This document shows, one piece after another, positions 5,722 through 22,417 of a stretch of DNA of 22,417 nt. The position numbers and the translations under genes are program-made. The DNA comes from a virus (Duplodnaviria > Heunggongvirae > Uroviricota > Caudoviricetes), in IMG/VR virus record IMGVR_UViG_3300000301_000076; one strand, 5' to 3'. Under the pieces are notes generated by a model. It was not told the DNA's origin and did not search any database. It worked only from the letters and a program-made list of their open reading frames with translations. How positions within the stretch are numbered: position 1 is the stretch's first letter; the number at the start of each line of letters is the position of its first letter.

Positions 5722-8700
5722 ATGGAACAGTTCAAGAAGAAAAAGCTACCGCTGTTTATTGCCGGTGCGGGTGGTAAAAAAAGCAGCAAAAGATCCAGCC
5801 GTACACCGGTTGAAGCCGACGATACCGTAAATTCTCGTGCAATGGCCGCTATCCTCGATCTTCTTGGGGAAGGGGTAATTGGCGGTTTAGTAAATGGCGC
5901 AAGATCTATTTTTATCGACGATCTGCCGATTGTAAATGAAGACGGTTCCTCCAACTTCAGCGGAATCACATGGGATTTTCGCGACGGTTCGCAAGACCAG
6001 ACTCCAATGTCTGGCTTTGATTTCGTTGAAACGCCTAAATCCGTCAATATCCAGTTAAAAAAAACACATTATGTAACGGTTTCAATCGATAACGATGAAG
6101 CTGATCGGGTTCGTGTCATCATGAAGTTTCCTTCTTTGCGAAGCATAGATAAAAAAACTGGTGACACGAACGGTACGACTGTTGAGTACAAGTTCCAGAT
6201 AGCAAATGGCGACTCAACATTTGTAGATGTGGTCGCTGAAGGTGAAAAAAGCGTTGGCATTAAGCTAACAGCAAAGAAGACCGGCGTTTATTACCGTAGC
6301 TATGAGCTGAAGCTGCCTAAGCCTGGACGAGCATACAAGGTTCGTGTGGTCCGTATTACCGATGATAACAGTAGCCAGTATCTCTATAACGATACATGGG
6401 TGGATTCAATCGGGGAAATTGTCGATACACCGATGAACTATCCAAACTCTGTTTTGGTTGGATTGAAGGTAAACTCTGAGCAATTCGGCAGCACCATGCC
6501 ATCTCGCTCTTATCTGGTGCGTGGCCTAAAAATTCGAGTACCTTCAAACTATAACGAGTCCAGTAACACTTACGCTGGGGTATGGGATGGCACTTTTAAG
6601 CTGTTGTCTTCTTCGAACCCCGCGTGGATTCTCTTTGATTTGCTGACCAATGCTCGATATGGCCTTGGTCAGTATGTGTCGGAATCTATGATTGACCTTG
6701 GCCAGTTGTACCAGATTGGTCGATATTGTGACGAAGAGGTCGATGATGGCTTTGGTGGCAAAGAGAAACGCTTTGCAATCAATACGCAGATCACCAGTCG
6801 ACAGGACGCATACCGGCTAATTCAGGATATTGCCGGAGCATTCCGCGGCATGGTGTTTTGGGCTGGTGGGATGGTTAACATCATGCANNNNNNNNNNNNN
6901 NNNNNNNNNNNNNNNNNNNNNNNNNNNNNNNNNNNNNNNNNNNNNNNNNNNNNNNNNNNNNNNNNNNNNNNNNNNNNNNNAGATCCGGTAATGATGTTTA
7001 CCAACTCTAACGTCAAAGATGGATTGTTTACCTATAAAGGTTCTGCGCGTAAAGATCGCCCATCCGTTGCGCTCGTAACCTACAACAACAAGGAGGACGG
7101 TTATAAGCAAAACATCGAGTACGTCGAAGATCAGGACGCAATGCGCCGTTATGGTGAGCGTAAGACAGAAGTCGTAGCATTTGGCTGTACAAGCCGAGGC
7201 CAGNNNNNNNNNNNNNNNNNNNNNNNNNNNNNNNNNNNNNNNNNNNNNNNNNNNNNNNNNNNNNNNNNNNNNNNNNNNNNNNNNNNNNNNNNNNTTTATG
7301 GCTTTTGTATACAGCCAGAATGGAGTCGGATGTAATTACATTTACTGCCGGCTTAGATGCGTCATTCCTGATGCCTGGTGAAACCGTTCTGATTCAGAAC
7401 AAATATCGCGCAGGCAAACGTAACTCAGGTCGAATTGTGGCGTTTACCAAAAACAGCGTCACACTCGATGCGCCTGTGTCGTTAGCCAAAGGCGGCTGCT
7501 TTATTCGAATACNNNNNNNNNNNNNNNNNNNNNNNNNNNNNNNNNNNNNNNNNNNNNNNNNNNNNNNNNNNNNNNNNNNNNNNNNNNNNNNNNNNNNNNN
7601 NNNCAAAATCGTTGAACGCGATGTTCTTGAAACTGGCGAAAATATAACAAAAGTTACGTTTTCAAAAGCCCTGTCTTCGGCTGAAACGCCTGTTTTGAAC
7701 GGCGTCTGGACTATTACAGAACCAGACCTCGAACCTATGCGCGTTCGCATTGTTAACATAGCACAGGGGGAAACGCCGGGTAGCTTTGACATCACCGCTG
7801 TTGAGAACAATCCGTCTAAATATGAGGCGATCGACAATGGTGCAACGCTTATCCCGCAGAATACGACGGTATTGGACCCGACTTATTCCAAGCCGTCTAA
7901 TTTGCAAATCACTGNNNNNNNNNNNNNNNNNNNNNNNNNNNNNNNNNNNNNNNNNNNNNNNNNNNNNNNNNNNNNNNNNNNNNNNNNNNNNNNNNNNNNN
8001 NNNNNNNNNNNNNNNNNNNNNNNNTGTCAGTAAAACTGACTGCAACATGGGAAGGGAAATCTCCAGAGTATTGGATCAGTTGGCGACGTTCTGATGAAAA
8101 CAATGTATCGAACTGGCAATCGGCGCGTGTAACCGAAGAGCAATACGAAATCGTTAATGTTGCGGAGAATGGACGCTACGACTTCCAGCTGTATGCGGTT
8201 TCATTCAACGGTAAAAAAACAGAGATTATCAGTACCGTTTATCAGGTGCTGGGCACAATGACACCGCCAGATGCCCCAACGTCATTAACGGCCGTTGGAG
8301 ACTATCGTAATGTGATACTGAATTGGGTTAATCCAGATTCGGTAGACCTTGATCACATTAATGTTTACGCATCCCAGACCAACAATCTGGATACAGCGAA
8401 ACTGATCGCAGAGTCTGCAAGCACCACCTTTACACATGCTGGTCTTGGGGATAGCGAAACGTGGTATTACTGGGTTCGTGCGTCAAACAAGCGCGGTATG
8501 TTGAGTCCTCCGAACTCAAACTTGGGTACAGAGGCGACGACTCGCGATGTGCTGTCGTTCCTGACAGGCAAAATTACGTCTTCTGAACTTGGCCAGACTT
8601 TACTTGAGGAAATCGACTCAAAAGTATCTCAGGAGGCGGTGGATTCCATCTATCAACAGATGGAAGAAAGTCTGAAAATCCTCGATGACAAATTTACAGA

Positions 8701-10463
8701 TGCCGATCAGCGGCTTGAAGAAGCTCAAAACAATCTTAAAACGGAAGTTTCCGGTACTGTCAGCAAGGTGGAAGACGCGCTTAAGGAGGTTGCAAACTCT
8801 AACGCTGCCTTAATTCAGTTGCAGGAAANNNNNNNNNNNNNNNNNNNNNNNNNNNNNNNNNNNNNNNNNNNNNNNNNNNNNNNNNNNNNNNNNNNNNNGC
8901 AGGGTAAAGCTGTAGCTGGAGCTGTTGAGGCGGCAAATGCAGCACTTGACAATTCATCGGCTTTAATTGCGGAGGAGCGTGAAGCACGAGTTGAGGGTGA
9001 CTTGGCAAACGCNNNNNNNNNNNNNNNNNNNNNNNNNNNNNNNNNNNNNNNNNNNNNNNNNNNNNNNNNNTCGAGGCGATGAAGTCAACTGTAGATAGCA
9101 GTTTAGCCACCATTGAAGAAATGAAAAAAACCGTGGCTGAAGTTGAACGTTCTAGTGCCGAAGTTACGACAAACATTGAGGCATTGGCTAAAACAAACAT
9201 CGATCTTGCTTTGCGTCAGGATGAAGATCAGCACAAGCAGATGGTGAGTAATGCGAAGATCACCACAACTCAGAAGGCTTTTGCAGACGATATATCTGCA
9301 ATGGCTACGAAAATGGAGGAAATTCGCGCTGAAATAAATGAGGATATCAGAGCTTCAATCACTGAAGAAACAACGGCTCGTGTAGATGCTGATAATGCTA
9401 TTGCAAGCAGAATCACCAAACTTGAATCAAAGATTAACGATGATATTTCTGCCGCAATTGTGAGTGAACAAGAGGCACGAGCTAGTGCCGATGAAGCACT
9501 TTCAAAAGAAATACTATCGTTACAAGCCAAAATTGAAGGCGATATTAGTGCAGCTATATCTGAAGAAAAAATTGCCCGAGCAACTGCTGATGAATCTTTA
9601 GNNNNNNNNNNNNNNNNNNNNNNNNNNNNNNNNNNNNNNNNNNNNNNNNNNNNNNNNNNNNNNNNNNNNNNNNNNNNNNNNNNNNNNNNNNNNNNNNNNN
9701 NNNNNNNNNNNNNNNAGATATTAAGGCGGCTGTAGCAGAAGAGACGAAAGCCAGAACTGACGCTGATTCGGCTTTGGCTTCTAGTATCACTAATCTACAG
9801 GCGCAAACGAGCAAAGATATTAATGCCGCGATTACGTCTGAGGCAACTGTGCGCACAAACGCCGACAATGCTCTAAGTGGACGAATTGACACCTTAAAAG
9901 CATCAGTTGATGGAAATACAGCGACAATTCAAGAGCANNNNNNNNNNNNNNNNNNNNNNNNNNNNNNNNNNNNNNNNNNNNNNNNNNNNNNNNNNNNNNN
10001 NNNNNNNNNNNNNNNGGCAACTGCTATTGCTGATACTAACAAAAAGGTTTCAACCGCGTGGACGTTGAAGATGGAAACGTCAACAAGTGGTGGGCAAAAA
10101 TATGTCGCAGGTATTGCGCTTGGAATTGACACCACGGGGCTTTCCCAGTTTTTGGTGCAAGCAGATCGATTTGGTCTAGTTAACTCAGTTAACGGAAAGA
10201 TCACCACACCATTTGTTATCGAAAACAGCGTTGCATACATGAATGGTGCGTATATTAAGGATGGTACTATCACAAATGCAAAGGTAGGTGACTTGCAATC
10301 AACAAACTTCGTAAGCGGACGAGTCGGATGGCGATTTGGTAAAAATGGAACGCTTGAGATCAACGGCAATAGTGGCGGCAATGGGAGATTGGTTATAAAT
10401 GGTCAGAGGATTGACGTTTATGATGACAATAATGTCCTTCGAGTGAGGATTGGTCAGCTTTGA
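5722..10463 (+). CDS. J: Host-specificity / central tail tip protein J homologue with an internal coiled-coil repeat insertion (many N-runs; frame changes at each)
   Basis: N-terminal 500 aa are collinear with lambda gpJ by recall (GITWDFRDGSQDQTP, YPNSVLVGLKVNSEQFGS, GLKIRVPSNYN, GVWDGTF, DGFGG, AFGCTSRGQ). Fibronectin-III-like segment at about 8027-8540. Near the C-terminus YVAGIALGIDTTGLSQFLVQADRF matches lambda J [28 protein letters not shown]. Coding is continuous across the gaps only if the N-runs are not length-preserving. ATG 5722 with AAGGA 10 nt upstream; stop at 10461-10463. Confidence 0.85.
9280..9938 (+). repeat. At least six tandem copies of a 33-codon (99-nt) repeat inside J (consensus D-I-x-A-A-I-x-x-E-x-x-A-R-x-x-A-D-x-A-L-x-x-x-I-x-x-L-x-A-x-x-x-x)
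   Basis: The periodic units are visible in the translation and the DNA (gatatatctgca, gatatcagagct, gatatttctgccgca, gatattagtgcagct, gatattaaggcggct, gatattaatgccgcg). Interrupted by N-run 9602-9715, so the copy number is a minimum. Confidence 0.8.
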
Positions 10464-16606: not shown

Positions 16607-16714
16607 ACATTATTCTNNNNNNNNNNNNNNNNNNNNNNNNNNNNNNNNNNNNNNNNNNNNNNNNNNNNNNNNNNNNNNNNNNNNNNNNNNNNNNNNNNNN
16701 NNNNNNNNNNNNNN

Positions 16715-17290
16715 AGATTTTGTAGGATAGAACAAAGAACGCTCGTTGTTACCAACCAGCTGGATAAAGCCTAAACTTTTATAAAACGCCTTGGCTTTGT
16801 CATTTAACGCCTCAACGAAAAGTCCATGAATGCCTACAGCAAGAGATGCATTGTACACAACGCGCATTGCATGTGTTACAAGNNNNNNNNNNNNNNNNNN
16901 NNNNNNNNNNNNNNNNNNNNNNNNNNNNNNNNNNNNNNNNNNNNNNNNNNNNNNNNNNNNNATTGAGCCAAATCCTTGACCTTGAAGGGACTTGTCCAAA
17001 GCCAGCCTACCCAAAGTAACACTTGGAACATTCCGATAAGGAACCTTCTTTTGTTTGCTTCTTGAAGGTAAGGACTCCTTTTCAAAACAACTACCTGACA
17101 AAGTGTAATATCCTAACACTTTTGGCCTTTCTTCTTGAGTGCAAAGCACATAAGCACGAAGAATTTTTCCCTCATGCTGCCTTTTTAAGTGGTTGGCTAA
17201 AAAGGCGTTTAGTGACTCTTCGCCGCAATCAAAACCGTTTAGATCATAATCTTTCTCTCCAGAGAAAATCTCTATCGTTGTATTGCTCAC
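16715..17290 (-). CDS. GNAT-family acetyltransferase toxin, AtaT/TacT-like (3' end lies inside N-run 16617-16714; internal N-run 16883-16961)
   Basis: The translation is close to my recollection of E. coli AtaT (YDLxxFDCGEExLNxFL, KILRAYVLC, VLGYYTLSGSCFE, QKKVPYxNVPSVTLGRLAxDxSLQGQGFG, HAMxVVxxASLAVGIHGLFVEALNxKA, FYKSLGFIxLVG, FYPTKS). GTG start at 17290, 5 nt after the antitoxin stop. Confidence 0.85.
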
Positions 17291-17297
17291 GAGTAAA

Positions 17298-17567
17298 CTA
17301 CTCCATGCTTTTCAGACGATCAGCAGCTCGTTTCAGCTTGTCGTTCGGTGCCGGAGGATTGCTTATAGCGTCCATAACCAGATTCCAGGATTCTTCATTC
17401 AGAACTAGTCTACGGTGTTGCTCTATAACTTTCACGGCACGTTCAGATGCACTGCTAACCATAAACTGAGTAATGCTCTGGTTAGACATTGCGGCAGCTT
17501 CCTCGATGATGCTTTTATCGTCATCGGTTAATCTCAAATCGATGCGCTGCTTTTTTAGTGCTGACAT
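17298..17567 (-). CDS. DUF1778 ribbon-helix-helix antitoxin, AtaR/TacA-like
   Basis: MSALKKQRIDLRLTDDDKSIIEEAAAMSNQSITQFMVSSASERAVKVIEQHRRLVLNEESWNLVMDAISNPPAPNDKLKRAADRLKSME matches recalled AtaR almost along its whole length. Start taken at the internal ATG (17567) because AGGAGG precedes it; the ORF-track start at 17606 is rejected. Confidence 0.85.
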   Translation of the reverse strand: MSALKKQRIDLRLTDDDKSIIEEAAAMSNQSITQFMVSSASERAVKVIEQHRRLVLNEESWNLVMDAISNPPAPNDKLKRAADRLKSME

Positions 17568-17577
17568 GTATTCCTCC

Positions 17578-17605
17578 TGATGGCCGTGATGTAGGAAGGC
17601 CATCA
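17578..17605 (-). promoter_or_regulatory. Inverted repeat TGATGGCC-N12-GGCCATCA immediately upstream of the antitoxin RBS; candidate operator of the TA operon
   Basis: 8-bp perfect arms read directly from the sequence. TA operons of this family are autoregulated by the antitoxin-toxin complex binding palindromes at the promoter (established knowledge); the assignment here is inference. Confidence 0.35.
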
Positions 17606-17885
17606 ATCTCCTCTGTTCAAACTGAGTTTTCGACTCAAAAATTACTTTAAAAGGCTATAGCCCATTACGTGTGCATTATCAAATTGTGTACGGCATATCA
17701 CCGTACTTGTAATATAGAGGTCATTGTTACTTTTTTCAACAGACAAATACAAGCTATGATTGCCAATTGTTAACCACAACCTACCATTTAACCTTTACAC
17801 CGCAGCCGTAGGCATTTAGGCTATATCACATATAAGAAAACAAGTTGTTTCAGACGATAATTATATACGCAAAGGGAACTCTCCA

Positions 17886-18628
17886 ATGACCAAGATCTTT
17901 GTGGTTGGCGGCACAAAGGGCGGGCCTGGCAAATCCACCGTTGCCCAGCAAATTGCCGTTTGCCTGAAAGTCAAAAAGAAGAAGAAGGTTTATATTACCG
18001 ATATAGATATNNNNNNNNNNNNNNNNNNNNNNNNNNNNNNNNNNNNNNNNNNNNNNNNNNNNNNNNNNNNNNNNNNNNNNNNNNNNNNNNNNNNNNNNNN
18101 NNNNNNTGTGAAGACCGTCGACAGAACGAAGACCTTGAGCTGATTCCTTTTGCATACGTTCAGGATGACATCATTAAGCACCTAAAATCGCTTCAGGGTA
18201 GAGCTGAGTTTGTAGTGGTAGATGCTGGTGGCTTCGACTCCGAAATTCAGCGACAAGCGATGCTGATGGCTGACGTTATCATTATCCCGCTGCGTCCTAA
18301 GCGTCGTGATTTGAAATCTTTACGTGACATCGATCCTATTATCGACAATGTTCGCAATGTAAACGATAAAGTGAAGGTCCGCGCGGTCATGAACCAGTGC
18401 CCGGCTTTGCCATCACAAGTGTCTCGCATTCTGGCGGCTAAAGAGATTGTTGAGACGTTTGGAATCGAGTCTGCGCCAGTCAATCTATATAACCGCAACG
18501 TCTATGATGATGCGGAAGAGTCTGGTCGTTCTATCTTTGAAATGACCGGTAGCGAGCGCGACAAAAAGGCGGAAGCCGAGTTTGAAGAATTTGTAGATTA
18601 TCTGTTGAGTCTGGAGGAAGAAGAATAA
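17886..18628 (+). CDS. parA: ParA-family partition ATPase, small type Ib-like (N-run 18011-18106)
   Basis: Deviant Walker A at the N-terminus (VGGTKGGPGKST), VVVDAGG motif, about 245 aa. ATG 17886; stop overlaps the next start (TAATG at 18626-18630). Confidence 0.85.
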
Positions 18629-18987
18629 TGTCCATGAAAATGGGTGACCTAGCAAAGCGCAAAGAGCCTGATGCACCGGCTAAGAACACAACTCCTTTGC
18701 GCCAACCAGTCAGACCACAAGGACGCCCGACTCGTGGCAAAGAGAAAATTAAAAGCCGCACTATGTCACTGGAAGACGAATACTTCGAGCTTCTGGAAAT
18801 GATGAAGTTTATCCCTCGTTTCGAGAAGTTCACCCGCTCTGATGTGATTCGTGCTGCTATTTTCCATCTGGCAGAGAAGTCACCGCAGGAAATCGAGGAC
18901 ATCGTAAAGCTGAACGAGGCGATCACAGCTGCCGATGTCACGATGCGTACCGATGAAATTAAACGCGAGTTGATGAAGAAAGGTTAA
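18628..18987 (+). CDS. ParG-like centromere-binding protein (basic disordered N-terminus, C-terminal ribbon-helix-helix-like)
   Basis: 119 aa, Lys/Arg/Pro-rich N-terminal 45 aa, then a predicted strand-helix-helix segment (MSLEDEYFELLEMMKFIPRFEKFTRSDVIRAAIFHLAEKS). Translationally coupled to parA. Classic small ParA plus small partner architecture. Confidence 0.55.
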   Translation: MSMKMGDLAKRKEPDAPAKNTTPLRQPVRPQGRPTRGKEKIKSRTMSLEDEYFELLEMMKFIPRFEKFTRSDVIRAAIFHLAEKSPQEIEDIVKLNEAITAADVTMRTDEIKRELMKKG

Positions 18988-19018
18988 TAATGTGGGCTGT
19001 CTAGCCCACATTATTTTA
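18988..19018 (+). terminator. Rho-independent terminator after the partition operon (aatgtgggct / gtct / agcccacatt, then ATTTTAATT)
   Basis: 10-bp perfect stem, 4-nt loop, T-rich tail, starting 1 nt after the parG-like stop. Confidence 0.65.
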
Positions 19019-19038
19019 ATTAAAGTGGAGTGATAATT

Positions 19039-19869
19039 ATGCATTCGTTAGTATTTGCATTTAAAAACATACTCAAGAATGTTATAAACATACTAGGGAT
19101 GTTAAATATTTTTTTGTCTGTGAGGGTGAGGAGAAAAGATATAAAAGATAAATTAAAGGAACTTAACAAAGAAAAAGAACAATTAAAAAGCGAAGAAATT
19201 ATTATTGATTTATACAAGAAAAAACTCGCATCTAGCAAGGGGAAAGCTAATGATAAAATCAAAGGAAAAATAATTCACTATATTATTGCTAGAGAGTTGG
19301 GGAATGATCCTGATAATGAAGATTTGCGACATAATCTTTTTACAAAGATAAAAGAATCAGAAGAACAGGTTGAAGTTCTGGTTCATCAAAGAGAAGTAAG
19401 TGAGCAGGCGAACAAAAAAGAAACGGTTGTCAATTTGTTTTTATTGTATGAAAAAAATAAATTGTTTAAAGCTAAGGGGTTGGCTGTGTTTCTTATAGTT
19501 ATAAACTTAATTATAGTTGCGACTCTCGATCTTCCAGCTTGGTCATTGATTATAAGTTTTTTTATTCTCTCTTTNNNNNNNNNNNNNNNNNNNNNNNNNN
19601 NNNNNNNNNNNNNNNNNNNNNNNNNNNNNNNNNNNNNNNNNNNNNNNNNNNNNNNNNNNNNNNNNNNNNNNNNNNNNNNNATTCGTGTCTCTAAAGGATA
19701 TTTTGGCACAAGTGCGTATGAAGCGGTTCAATTGCTTAAATTCATCAGAGAAAATTCAGACAAATTTGACTCAGATGATAATGACGGTAGCCCACGACGG
19801 ATATTGAATCCGAAGGGAACAACAAAAAAATCAGACAACCTATTCGATAAAGGGTGGCAAAATGTTTGA
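19039..19869 (+). CDS. Hypothetical membrane-associated protein, AT-rich gene (N-run 19575-19680)
   Basis: ATG 19039 with TGGAG 9 nt upstream. Amphipathic N-terminus, Lys/Glu-rich coiled-coil-like stretch, hydrophobic block (GLAVFLIVINLIIVATLDLPAWSLIISFFILS), soluble C-terminal tail. GC is much lower than the flanks (about 30 percent by eye). No family recognised. Confidence 0.5.
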   Translation: MHSLVFAFKNILKNVINILGMLNIFLSVRVRRKDIKDKLKELNKEKEQLKSEEIIIDLYKKKLASSKGKANDKIKGKIIHYIIARELGNDPDNEDLRHNLFTKIKESEEQVEVLVHQREVSEQANKKETVVNLFLLYEKNKLFKAKGLAVFLIVINLIIVATLDLPAWSLIISFFILSXXXXXXXXXXXXXXXXXXXXXXXXXXXXXXXXXXXXIRVSKGYFGTSAYEAVQLLKFIRENSDKFDSDDNDGSPRRILNPKGTTKKSDNLFDKGWQNV

Positions 19870-20284
19870 CCTTGACGCCATCACTAAGTTCTTAAATCAG
19901 TGTTTTGATCTACTTTTGCTCAAGCAGCCTTTAAGAACTGTTTTCGGAATACTGATTGGTTTCATTATTTTTGTTTTTGTTTACACGTTTAGGTTTGCGA
20001 TAGCTCAAGATTTTTATGAAATAGATGGTGTGCATTACGCTGCATGTTTCGTCATCGGTGTTTTAGTTGTTCACACAAGAACATTTTTTGACGTTATCAA
20101 GGGCACCGCAGTTGATGAAGAAATAGATAGTATGATCAGAGTTATTACGAAGCAGCCACACCTATCTAACCATCAAAAAAACATAATGATTGCTGAAATA
20201 CTTCAAAAAGAAATTGCAGCCATAAGTCAAAAGAGATTGGATAAAGTTGCACAAGAAATAACGGAGAAAAAGACAACTGATTAA
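19862..20284 (+). CDS. Hypothetical small membrane protein (two predicted TM helices), translationally coupled to the upstream gene
   Basis: ATG 19862 overlaps the upstream stop (ATGTTTGA). Hydrophobic segments TVFGILIGFIIFVFVYTF and AACFVIGVLVV, then a charged C-terminal helix. AT-rich. No family recognised. Confidence 0.5.
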   Translation: MFDLDAITKFLNQCFDLLLLKQPLRTVFGILIGFIIFVFVYTFRFAIAQDFYEIDGVHYAACFVIGVLVVHTRTFFDVIKGTAVDEEIDSMIRVITKQPHLSNHQKNIMIAEILQKEIAAISQKRLDKVAQEITEKKTTD

Positions 20285-20464
20285 TTTAATTACCTGTTTC
20301 TGTATATAAATAATAAGTAACTTATTAAATATATATACGGAAGCAGGTCTTTTAAAAGACACCCACCAGAACAACTCCCTTCCGTTTCCACTTCCAAAAA
20401 CTGCCACCAGTCGCTATCATCCGCTCATTGTGATAAGTAAGTAACTACCTACCAGGTGAGCCAC

Positions 20465-21284
20465 ATGAGCCAAATCTTTTTCGATACCATCGACAACAAC
20501 CAGTACGACTTCATGACAGAGTGGAATACCGCTGTTATGGACAAGTGGGTTGCTGAAAACATTGGTTTGTCGCGCTGTAAAGACGAGGCTGAACTCTTCG
20601 AGACGAAGTGGTTTGATTATCGCGACATGCATCCTCTCATGGCCACCTGTCTTTTTACGGAGGCATACAAACGTCAGTACTCAAATATCATGCTGACGCA
20701 CGGTCGCGAACACTTTGAAACAGCTCCGTTCACCACCGGGTTAAAACGTCTGCCTTATCAGGAGTTGTCGACTGCCAACAAAACGTCGCTATGGAAAGCA
20801 CGCCAGTTTGCGGATCGCTATTGCTGCTCATACGACTACTTTATCTCCACCGTTCTTTCCGCAGCTGCACGACGGCTGTGGGACAAGCTGCCGCGCCCAC
20901 AGCATTTGTGGCAGCCAGAACTGATTNNNNNNNNNNNNNNNNNNNNNNNNNNNNNNNNNNNNNNNNNNNNNNNNNNNNNNNNNNNNNNNNNNNNNNNNNN
21001 NNNNNNNNNNNNNTGAAGAGAAATTAGCCAGACGCGCAACAACCCGTCTGGATGACTCTCTTGTTAGCTTTAAGCATATGGGAGACATGCAGTTCAACCC
21101 GATTCAGGAAAGCTATTTTGAGTGGATTCTGGAGCGTTTGCGCACCATCCCTCGCAGCAAGCGCATACGCGCAATTTTCTCCGCTATCTGGCTAATGGAA
21201 ATCGTTCCAGAGCGCCTTATTTCCGCCCACTTTCCAGAAGAACTGGAAGAAGCACGGCGGTTTATTGATCCCCTATCTAATTAA
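20465..21284 (+). CDS. Hypothetical protein upstream of the helicase; possible replication-associated factor (N-run 20927-21013)
   Basis: Open frame either side of the N-run, both halves soluble with protein-like composition; lies directly upstream of a DnaB-like helicase gene. No family recognised. Start could be GTG 20456 or ATG 20465. Confidence 0.4.
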
Positions 21285-21327
21285 CTAATACTAGAAAACA
21301 ATTTGTTTAAAAAACAAAGGAAAGCAC

Positions 21328-22417
21328 ATGACCGAACTTTGCCATACAGGACGCGGGCTGTCCGAAGAGTTTGATGAAGATTTCCAGAACAGACTGACGG
21401 CATATTTTTGTCGTGATCACGAGTTTCTTACTCGTGCGGGAGATCTGGTTGTGCCTAGCCAATTTGCCAATGCGGCCAATGCCATATTGGTTAATATGGT
21501 TTCGGGCTATTACCGTATGTACAAGAGCGCGCCCTCTTCATCTGCAATTCTGGATATGCTTAAGCGTGCGAAACGCGATAAGACTATCCGTGAGGAACTA
21601 TTCGCAGATGTTGTTGCTGCGTTTAAGCGCATTCTTGCAGAAAAATTGTCCGATACCTCGTACATGGTTGACCAGGTATCAACCTTCGCAAAAAGTGTAG
21701 CGTTTGATGATGCTCTGATTAAGGCTGCTGAACTGAAAGAGAAAGGCGACTTTCAGGGGGCGATGGCAATCATGGCCAAGGTTCAGCAGATTGGATCGAA
21801 CGAAGCGACCGGAATCTATGACTACTACACCTCCGCAAGTGAGCGATTGAAAGCGCGTGAATATGAGGCTTCAGAGGAGTATGTACCAAACAGTATTACA
21901 ACTGGACTCCCTCTTCTCGATAGGTTGCTGTACCAAAAAGGCTGGGCAAAGCGCGAAATGGTGCTCTTCATGGGGTTCGCTAAATCCGGTAAATCGACCG
22001 CAATGGGTGAGTTTTCCATAAACGCAACACTTGCTGGCTACAATGTTCTGTATCTCTCGCTGGAGGTTCACACCACCATTTTATCCGACCGTTTTGATGC
22101 AAGATTGTCGGAGACGGAAATGTCCAAGTTGGTGGAACGGCGCGATGAAGTTCATCGCAAGTTGGCAGAGTTGGGAGCTACGAAGGGTATTGGTAGTTTG
22201 TGGGTTGTTGAGCGTCCGTCAGGAAGTATGTCACCGGCAGATCTGGACCGTATGCTTAACAGCATGAAAGCCAACGGCATGGTGCCTGACATGGTTGTTG
22301 TCGACTACGCAGATTTGATGCGTGCCAGTTATGACCTTCGTGATGATCGCGCCAACATTCGTAGTATCTACACCGATTTACGTGCTCTTTATGACAAGCA
22401 TAACGTTGCTGGGATCA
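21328..22417 (+). CDS. DnaB-like replicative helicase, 3' partial (runs off the window end)
   Basis: I translated this frame by hand from ATG 21328: no stop to nt 22417 (363 codons). Walker A GFAKSGKST and Walker B-like MVVVDYADLM in the RecA-like C-terminal half, with a helical N-terminal domain. It is absent from the ORF track only because it has no stop in the window. Confidence 0.75.
   Translation, partial: MTELCHTGRGLSEEFDEDFQNRLTAYFCRDHEFLTRAGDLVVPSQFANAANAILVNMVSGYYRMYKSAPSSSAILDMLKRAKRDKTIREELFADVVAAFKRILAEKLSDTSYMVDQVSTFAKSVAFDDALIKAAELKEKGDFQGAMAIMAKVQQIGSNEATGIYDYYTSASERLKAREYEASEEYVPNSITTGLPLLDRLLYQKGWAKREMVLFMGFAKSGKSTAMGEFSINATLAGYNVLYLSLEVHTTILSDRFDARLSETEMSKLVERRDEVHRKLAELGATKGIGSLWVVERPSGSMSPADLDRMLNSMKANGMVPDMVVVDYADLMRASYDLRDDRANIRSIYTDLRALYDKHNVAGI

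Follow-up and report, generated by a model that had tools for sequence, protein, structure and literature searches.

The window analysed here is a 22,417-nt stretch of DNA from a tailed virus of the Caudoviricetes (IMG/VR record IMGVR_UViG_3300000301_000076), and is part of an SSU5/pHCM2-like phage-plasmid of Escherichia coli. Between its partition and replication genes lie two overlapping genes, here termed A and B, that encode predicted membrane proteins. The two form a conserved, translationally coupled and obligatory pair, and the A–B cassette is compositionally foreign, accessory cargo that has been horizontally acquired. The pair is not an isolated oddity; profile searches make it one of the alleles of a large two-gene family, as yet without a name, that is spread over mobile elements of several kinds. 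The genomic context, and the domains fused to some relatives, make the pair a candidate for a role in defence or exclusion, to which we give about an even chance, with abortive-infection-like action at the membrane as the leading version.

RESULTS

A foreign gene pair between partition and replication genes

Genes A and B lie on the same strand and overlap by 8 nt (ATGTTTGA). Each is preceded by a Shine–Dalgarno-like motif, which for gene A is GGAG at 19027–19030. An earlier note on this DNA, made from its letters alone, had described two translationally coupled genes at this position, of about 275 and 140 aa. The two open reading frames (ORFs; 19039–19869 and 19862–20284) and the length of B are as described, but A is really 250 aa. 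The window contains 25 masked runs of N, the lengths of which differ from those of the real sequence; three of these (18011–18106, 19575–19680 and 20927–21013) comprise 289 N in total and stand for 58 real bases. ORF lengths read off the window are therefore inflated, and gene A appears as 276–279 aa rather than the real 250–253 aa. The length of 250 aa follows from the 106-N run at 19575–19680, which stands for 28 nt. Since the lengths of the N runs are unreliable, the unmasked identical copy in plasmid pMTY18780-3 (NZ_AP023200.1, locus L001) was used for the analysis.

The cassette (19039–20284) has a GC content of 32.8%, calculated with N excluded, compared with 47–48% in the flanks; with N kept in the denominator, spurious low-GC dips appear elsewhere in the window. 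The values for the individual genes are 31.5% (A) and 34.8% (B), against 45–50% for all of ten neighbouring genes, and at third codon positions (GC3) 30% and 32%, against 42–56%. The six 600-nt windows of lowest GC in the 22.4 kb (29–37%; mean over the whole stretch 45.2%, SD 4.2) all overlap the cassette. The low GC that had been estimated by eye is thus confirmed by calculation. The local gene order is lysis cassette, a GNAT/DUF1778 pair on the minus strand, parA, a parB-like gene, A–B, a gene encoding a 246-aa protein, a DnaB-like helicase and a primase. This agrees with the location given in the earlier note, between partition genes (ParA and a small ParB-like protein) and replication genes (the 246-aa protein and the helicase).

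Architecture of the two proteins

Protein A has a helical, Lys/Glu-rich N-terminal half, followed by a hydrophobic block of 37 residues (aa 146–182) predicted to form a transmembrane (TM) hairpin, and a soluble tail. Protein B is predicted to comprise a short N-terminal helix, two TM segments (approximately aa 26–48 and 57–76) and a charged, helical cytoplasmic tail. The TM segments and the soluble or charged tails are thus predicted much as they had been described from inspection. The distribution of charge around the TM segments suggests that both proteins have an N-in/C-in topology, with periplasmic loops of only ∼7 and ∼12 residues.

The constant part of A starts with a conserved pre-TM helix at aa 126–145 (NKKETVVNLFLL.EK; family pattern NKxETVVNLFLL.EK), and after the hairpin it continues as a 60-aa tail, conserved at aa 188–232, that includes R190, G194, G197 and E202. 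Of these, R190 and E202 are invariant across the family, G194 and G197 nearly so, and the tail carries the motif YR[VI]xKG[YF]FGxNxxEAxQLxxFI. The invariant arginine is located 56–69 residues before the C-terminus in all members, and 57–62 residues before it in most. Prediction of the structure of A with AlphaFold2 (AF2), using 117 homologues, gave predicted local distance difference test (pLDDT) values >90 at aa 130–220, and the predicted fold is a plain helical membrane hairpin without enzymatic features. Predictions from the single sequence or a shallow alignment (pLDDT 55.6) were too poor for use. The acidic, Gly-rich loop of the A tail was considered by eye as an EF-hand (DxDxDG) and this was dropped, as the spacing is unfit.

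The N-terminal head of A diverges faster than the core at every distance, with sequence identities of 64.8% (head) versus 81.3% (core) and 25.6% versus 57.0%. Across the family the head takes the form of a coiled coil or of additional TM helices (one or two), and it is a DUF4880 (FecR-N) domain in five members and an EAD1 domain in one; at least three head types occur in the SSU5-like elements alone.

The TM region of B contains the motif P23-x2-T26-x2-G29-x3-G33, and the residues shared within the B family are D5, P23, T26, G29, G33 and G66. The earlier note had suggested asking whether the two genes occur as a unit in other genomes. An overlapping gene of 135–152 aa follows A in 33 of 33 loci, comprising 22 SSU5-like loci and 11 in other contexts. 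The partners of the SSU5 and Pseudomonas types are homologous (hhalign probability 96.2%, E 2.2e-9), and a hidden Markov model (HMM) of B recovers partners from outside its training set at E ≤ 9e-13 (Z set to 1e6). Descent of B from the core of A as a paralogue was considered and rejected (hhalign probability 0.7%).

The pair occupies a cargo slot of SSU5-like phage-plasmids

SSU5-like phage-plasmids have a cargo (‘moron’) hotspot between their parB-like and replication genes. When four slot variants are aligned, their identity stops exactly at the stop codon of the parB-like gene, and resumes ∼8 nt past the stop codon of B at a conserved hairpin. In p09EL50-type plasmids the same slot holds a gene for a 564-aa KAP-family NTPase (PADLOC PDC-S49 match, E 3.7e-22), and in phage Cyrano a gene for a 267-aa DUF2971 protein (PADLOC PDC-S31 match, E 3.1e-41). 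In SSU5 itself the A–B pair (SSU5_035/036) is followed by a DUF2971 gene within the slot (locus L005, 3345–5257), and A–B is likewise stacked with a PDC-S31-like DUF2971 gene in three IMG/VR contigs (L039–L041), so that a single slot can house more than one unit of cargo.

A tblastn search of PLSDB found 74 plasmids with a relative of gene A, all of them non-mobilizable, 116 with the KAP gene and 236 with the DUF2971 gene, while 687 records match the stretch from parA to the replication genes. The earlier note had counted it against its own proposal should the pair prove to be present only as conserved core genes of related phages, with no phenotype on phage challenge. With 74 A-carrying plasmids set against 687 backbone records, and with unrelated candidate defence genes taking its place, the pair is not part of the core. 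A role in partition or replication is rejected; unrelated genes replace the pair in most relatives, and the pair is found in elements that lack parAB.

The exact allele of the window is present in 7 of 5,426 complete E. coli genomes, on a plasmid every time. Two E. coli records that carry the cassette (NZ_JBWQDP010000003.1 and NZ_JBWGHW010000003.1) are 155,864 bp in length, compared with 108–113 kb for the usual SSU5-like plasmids; these may be cointegrates or carriers of large insertions. In the older annotation of the Klebsiella pneumoniae plasmid pKPHS1 (locus L006, 3331–4500) the A–B region is given as three ORFs of 61, 144 and 53 aa, which may be a mis-annotation or a disrupted copy.

Each cargo type has its own, unrelated hairpin straight after the parB-like stop codon, with a stability of -18 to -23 kcal/mol; those of relatives are located at 2609–2663 in L002, 2609–2663 in L003 and 4759–4834 in L004. 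The corresponding hairpin of the present allele (Table 1) may act as a leaky terminator or attenuator. The SSU5-type A–B alleles have no such hairpin, and in these A begins 1–5 nt past the parB-like stop codon, indicating a single operon. The hairpin at the right border has the arms CCTGTTTCTGTATATA … TATATACGGAAGCAGG, followed by TCTTTT. Its probable role is that of the terminator at the end of the cargo slot, and it could alternatively be an operator or a recombination landmark for the exchange of cargo.

A two-gene family in many mobile elements

A word-indexed search returned eight close clusters for A and four for B, all on contigs of ∼100–110 kb. A full HMM scan with the A profile extended this to 362 cluster representatives at E ≤ 1e-3, with the matches centred on profile positions 116–238. 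Named members come from Escherichia, Enterobacter, Klebsiella, Salmonella, Cronobacter, Citrobacter, Pantoea, Pseudomonas and Candidatus Electrothrix. Three family members are likely to be misannotated, as ‘DNA gyrase/topoisomerase IV subunit A’, ‘amino acid permease’ and ‘uncharacterized spore protein YtfJ’ (P0005, P0170 and P0207).

Every context found is an accessory position of a mobile element, and at several of them known or candidate defence genes are direct neighbours. A P4-like integrative element of Pseudomonas, with an Ogr/Delta-family protein, a Toprim primase and an integrase, carries the pair next to a T5orf172 protein that matches PDC-S57 (E 7.6e-21). In an integrase-bearing island the pair stands directly upstream of an OLD/GajA-like (OLD/Gabija-like) ATPase (E 9.6e-24). 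The DUF4880-fused pair on one contig (P0105, JGI 3300041965, 40–2556) is followed 46 nt on, on the same strand, by a gene for a 451-aa protein with TIR_2 and FGE-sulfatase domains, and the three genes may make up a single system. The earlier note had proposed looking for neighbouring defence islands, and the PDC-S57, OLD/GajA-like and TIR_2 genes are such neighbours at some of the loci. In an integrative and conjugative element (ICE) the pair lies between tra genes on the opposite strand, and the same ICE holds ParDE. In a P2-like prophage (L020) the first base of the pair coincides with the last of the CI-repressor gene, with an integrase further on, and in a P2-like phage it is placed between tail-completion and baseplate genes. 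The EAD1-fused pair belongs to a small integrative element with Prim-Pol, AAA_25 and integrase genes (L017). At that locus (7001–9796) the pair is followed by genes for a 231-aa protein that has no family and a 296-aa pentapeptide-repeat protein.

Similarity searches

Neither A nor B belongs to a family in Pfam, NCBIfam or PADLOC, and in PHROGs they fall into two families of ‘unknown function’, phrog_22270 and phrog_17322. The earlier statement that no motif places either protein in a family thus holds in these databases. The best matches in PADLOC-DB v2.0 are coiled-coil noise (PDC-M02B, E 1.2e-3; LeoBC, 8.8e-3; JetC, 1e-2), and the Pseudomonas relatives of the pair gave no PADLOC matches. 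Nothing was found when profiles of the A and B families were compared with the PDB sequences, and fold searches gave nothing specific. No RNA element was found by Rfam in or around the cassette, the best matches falling below the gathering scores. Homology to a housekeeping phage function, which the earlier note had named as contrary to its proposal, was not found in the profile searches.

Other features of the window

The coordinates of the cassette and of the features around it are collected in Table 1. The region 17800–21500 is 98.7–100% identical to E. coli plasmids, and the flanks match the phages Cyrano, CMS-2020a and SSU5. The homologue of parA has CbiA/ParA matches in Pfam, and parA is the first gene of the operon at whose end the cargo slot lies.

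Table 1. Positions of the A–B cassette, its parts and the neighbouring features in the window
Feature	Position	Strand	Remarks
Gene A, 250 aa (253 from GTG start)	19039–19869	+	ORF; length corrected for mask
Variable N-terminal cytoplasmic region of A, helical, Lys/Glu-rich, coiled coil (aa 1–125), predicted	19039–19413	+	
Constant part of A, with pre-TM helix, TM hairpin (in part masked) and conserved cytoplasmic tail, predicted	19414–19812	+	
Gene B, 140 aa	19862–20284	+	ORF
Hairpin with 13-bp stem, particular to this cargo allele	18986–19015	+	-18.5 kcal/mol, z -3.7; right after parB-like stop
Long hairpin followed by UCUUUU, kept in all cargo variants	20292–20353	+	-26.1 kcal/mol, z -7.9; right border of slot
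parA, small Walker-type partition ATPase, 222 aa	17886–18628	+	ORF; annotated ‘AAA family ATPase’/ParA; contains masked stretch
Small ParB-like gene, 117–119 aa	18628–18987	+	phrog_5111; stop codon is left border of slot
Conserved 246-aa gene (phrog_2500), before DnaB-like helicase	20465–21284	+	first core gene right of slot

A GNAT-family toxin (16610–17290) and a DUF1778 antitoxin (17298–17606), of the TacAT/KacAT type, are encoded on the minus strand between Rz and parA. This region (16610–17606) is variable as well and makes up a second slot; pMTY18780-3, though identical otherwise, carries two different genes here, of 127 and 250 aa. In relatives the slot holds a HEPN-domain protein (Cronobacter) or a helix-hairpin-helix protein (Klebsiella).

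DISCUSSION

Proposed function of the pair

The cassette is cargo of a swap-in/swap-out slot with which the parAB operon of an SSU5-like phage-plasmid ends at its 3′ side, and from this position it is probably expressed as long as the element persists as a plasmid prophage. As there is no promoter-like site between the parB-like gene and A, transcription would come from the parAB promoter, in the plasmid-prophage state. The function that we hold most likely is defence, in which the cytoplasmic head of A might sense, or be recruited by, a cue of infection. Together A and B would form a four-helix membrane unit, and this TM bundle would be the effector, oligomerising to cause leakage or depolarisation, so that the infected cell would stop growing or die. 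The outcome would be protection, at the inner membrane, of the carrier cell and the element against other phages or mobile elements.

One of the domain fusions points in the same direction. EADs are adaptors that couple effector domains to the NTPases of conflict systems, and the two-TM SLATT modules are predicted pore-forming effectors (PMC7159879). The EAD1 fusion in one member of the A family thus suggests that its two-TM module stands in the position of an effector. An SSU5-like plasmid of Klebsiella (Kp1604 plasmid p2, CP085480) has been found to lower the plating of three lytic phages by 10- to 100-fold and to lower transformation, with the gene unmapped (PMC8969562); this is a phenotype of the whole plasmid, which may or may not carry an A–B pair.

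A more specific version is put forward tentatively, as something that we hold possible rather than probable. In this, the A and B hairpins would make a constant heteromeric four-TM effector that, with an exchangeable A head, constitutes an undescribed and widespread two-component membrane immune module of mobile elements, of which this pair would be the first example. The type of head would decide what is sensed, or by which upstream system the effector is recruited.

Several points weigh against a role in defence. In searches of Pfam, NCBIfam, PADLOC and the PDB, A and B have no similarity to known defence proteins or pore formers, and full-text literature searches found no paper on this pair. 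Guilt by association is a weak argument here, because toxin–antitoxin (TA), exclusion and other moron genes use the same slots. The FecR-N (DUF4880) head fits a regulatory membrane tether equally well. Lastly, there is no sigma-70-like promoter between the parB-like gene and A, and in this allele the two are separated by a stable hairpin, which leaves expression of the pair putative.

Alternative functions

Three alternatives have been weighed, each of them unlikely. The best placed is superinfection exclusion at the entry step, whereby an A–B complex would block the injection of phage DNA or the entry of conjugative DNA, leaving the cell unharmed. P22 SieA, T4 Imm and HK97 gp15 block DNA injection at the inner membrane in this manner. 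Both A and B are predicted integral inner-membrane proteins, they are found in temperate phages, satellites and an ICE, and their layout implies expression during lysogeny, after parAB in the SSU5-type plasmids (which are unrelated to SXT) and after CI in the P2-like prophage. The lowered phage plating and transformation caused by the Kp1604 plasmid (PMC8969562) would also be expected. Yet nearly all the mass of A and B outside the membrane is predicted to be cytoplasmic, only the two short loops reaching the periplasm, and the part that is exchanged is the cytoplasmic head, of which the EAD1 and FecR-N types point to cytoplasmic partners. It is this almost wholly cytoplasmic exposure of the proteins and their heads that disfavours the explanation, and in Pfam there is no match to a known Sie or Imm family.

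Next in order of probability is a membrane function other than defence, in which the pair would be a tether or regulator resembling an anti-sigma factor, a modulator of envelope stress or a factor in the timing of lysis. The five members with DUF4880, an anti-sigma-type domain found at the N-terminus of FecR, are in accord with this, as is the predicted fold, a simple helical hairpin in the membrane that lacks enzymatic features. Against it, the pair has a patchy distribution and is replaced in its slot by unrelated genes, and no gene for an extracytoplasmic function (ECF) sigma factor was seen beside the DUF4880 members examined, which lie on short contigs. A complete lysis cassette (holin-like gene, endolysin and Rz) is present elsewhere, and PHROGs places neither protein in a lysis family. 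A holin/antiholin pair was considered and rejected; endolysin and Rz are ∼3 kb upstream with the TA pair and parAB in between, and A–B also occurs in the ICE and the P4-like element.

Least likely is a TA-like addiction module, with one membrane protein toxic and the other neutralising it to stabilise the element and any anti-phage effect secondary; two small, translationally coupled genes that are kept as a pair, adjoin the partition genes of a low-copy plasmid prophage and occur in elements in which addiction modules are typical (the ICE with ParDE is one) would suit it, but the window already has the GNAT/DUF1778 TA pair beside parA, neither A nor B has a DNA-binding or known toxin or antitoxin domain in Pfam or NCBIfam, an exchangeable EAD1, FecR-N or coiled-coil head is not a feature of TA systems, and the KAP NTPase and DUF2971 genes that replace the pair are unrelated single genes and not addiction modules.

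Comparison with known systems

Under the preferred reading of defence or exclusion, RexAB would be the closest functional analogue of the pair. RexA and RexB of phage lambda have 279 and 144 aa. The A–B cassette resembles them in being AT-rich, in consisting of two accessory genes of a temperate element and in the sizes of the products (250 + 140 versus 279 + 144 aa). Its layout would fit expression in the lysogen, as it follows parAB here, with a hairpin between the parB-like gene and A in this allele; in L020 the pair follows directly after CI, which is the cI-rexA-rexB layout. The proposed split between a sensing part and a membrane-bound effector that impairs the integrity of the membrane is a further likeness, and A–B would work like lambda RexAB, though unrelated to it. 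RexB is the membrane component of RexAB, and damages the membrane once triggered (PMC12894663). The pair does not have the components of a Rex system; it contains no cytoplasmic DNA-binding sensor protein like RexA and no four-TM effector like RexB, B having two hydrophobic segments and no match in Pfam or the PDB. RexABpp of Pseudomonas putida is another system of RexAB type (PMC12894663). Its proteins differ from A and B, as do those of the P4-hotspot systems Bandua, Aernus, Toga, Reve, Crouga and Hailong.

The SLATT proteins (Burroughs 2015; Kaur 2020, PMC7159879) resemble the A family in that a two-TM module takes the place of the effector, with exchangeable adaptor heads and conflict-system neighbourhoods. 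No match to the Pfam families SLATT_1 to SLATT_5 was found for A or B at E ≤ 1, nor among the matches of the B family, and when 117 members of the A family were scanned there was no SLATT among the 25 most-matched of 31 Pfam families at E ≤ 0.01. The A family differs from SLATT in having an obligatory second two-TM partner and the post-TM motif YR-x2-G-x-FG-x3-EA, and no cyclic-nucleotide synthase or sensor gene was seen beside an A–B pair.

PDC-S49 (KAP) and PDC-S31 (DUF2971) share the SSU5 slot and its flanks with the pair, and are exchangeable or stackable with it. They are soluble proteins unrelated to A and B, and are themselves only candidates in PADLOC. ‘Reve’ is a single-gene system of the P4 hotspot with a KAP P-loop protein that protects against phages (PMC13586616); the KAP protein of the SSU5 slot is likened to it by its KAP class. 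SieA, Imm, HK97 gp15 and the proteins of mycobacteriophage Butters are small inner-membrane proteins that temperate elements encode and make in the lysogen, as A and B are predicted to be. Butters gp30/gp31, as summarised in a later paper (PMC12894663), is a two-gene system with a membrane partner. No homology of A or B to any of these was detected; most of A and B is predicted to lie in the cytoplasm, and a modular head is not described for those proteins. The kind of system proposed, a two-gene membrane exclusion or abortive-infection cassette of prophages and plasmids, is known, while the proteins, the obligatory pairing of two TM helices with two and the swappable head are undescribed. The cassette is sharply bounded and well supported by its context, and is one of many competing candidate systems.

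Implications

If the pair is protective it would be a new, compact (∼1.2 kb) and easily testable system against phages and mobile elements, carried by phage-plasmids of clinically relevant Enterobacteriaceae, P2-like phages, a P4-like element and an ICE. Failing such a phenotype, several hundred clusters still make up a family that has no functional assignment. The clean borders of the slot between the parB-like and replication genes could be used to mine further candidates. Should the two-component module with its exchangeable head prove correct, one membrane ‘warhead’ would serve either on its own, in phages and plasmids, or plugged into larger conflict systems as their effector. The architecture, in which a swappable head is joined to a constant core of two membrane proteins, would be a tractable model for the way in which membrane effectors are coupled to different triggers.

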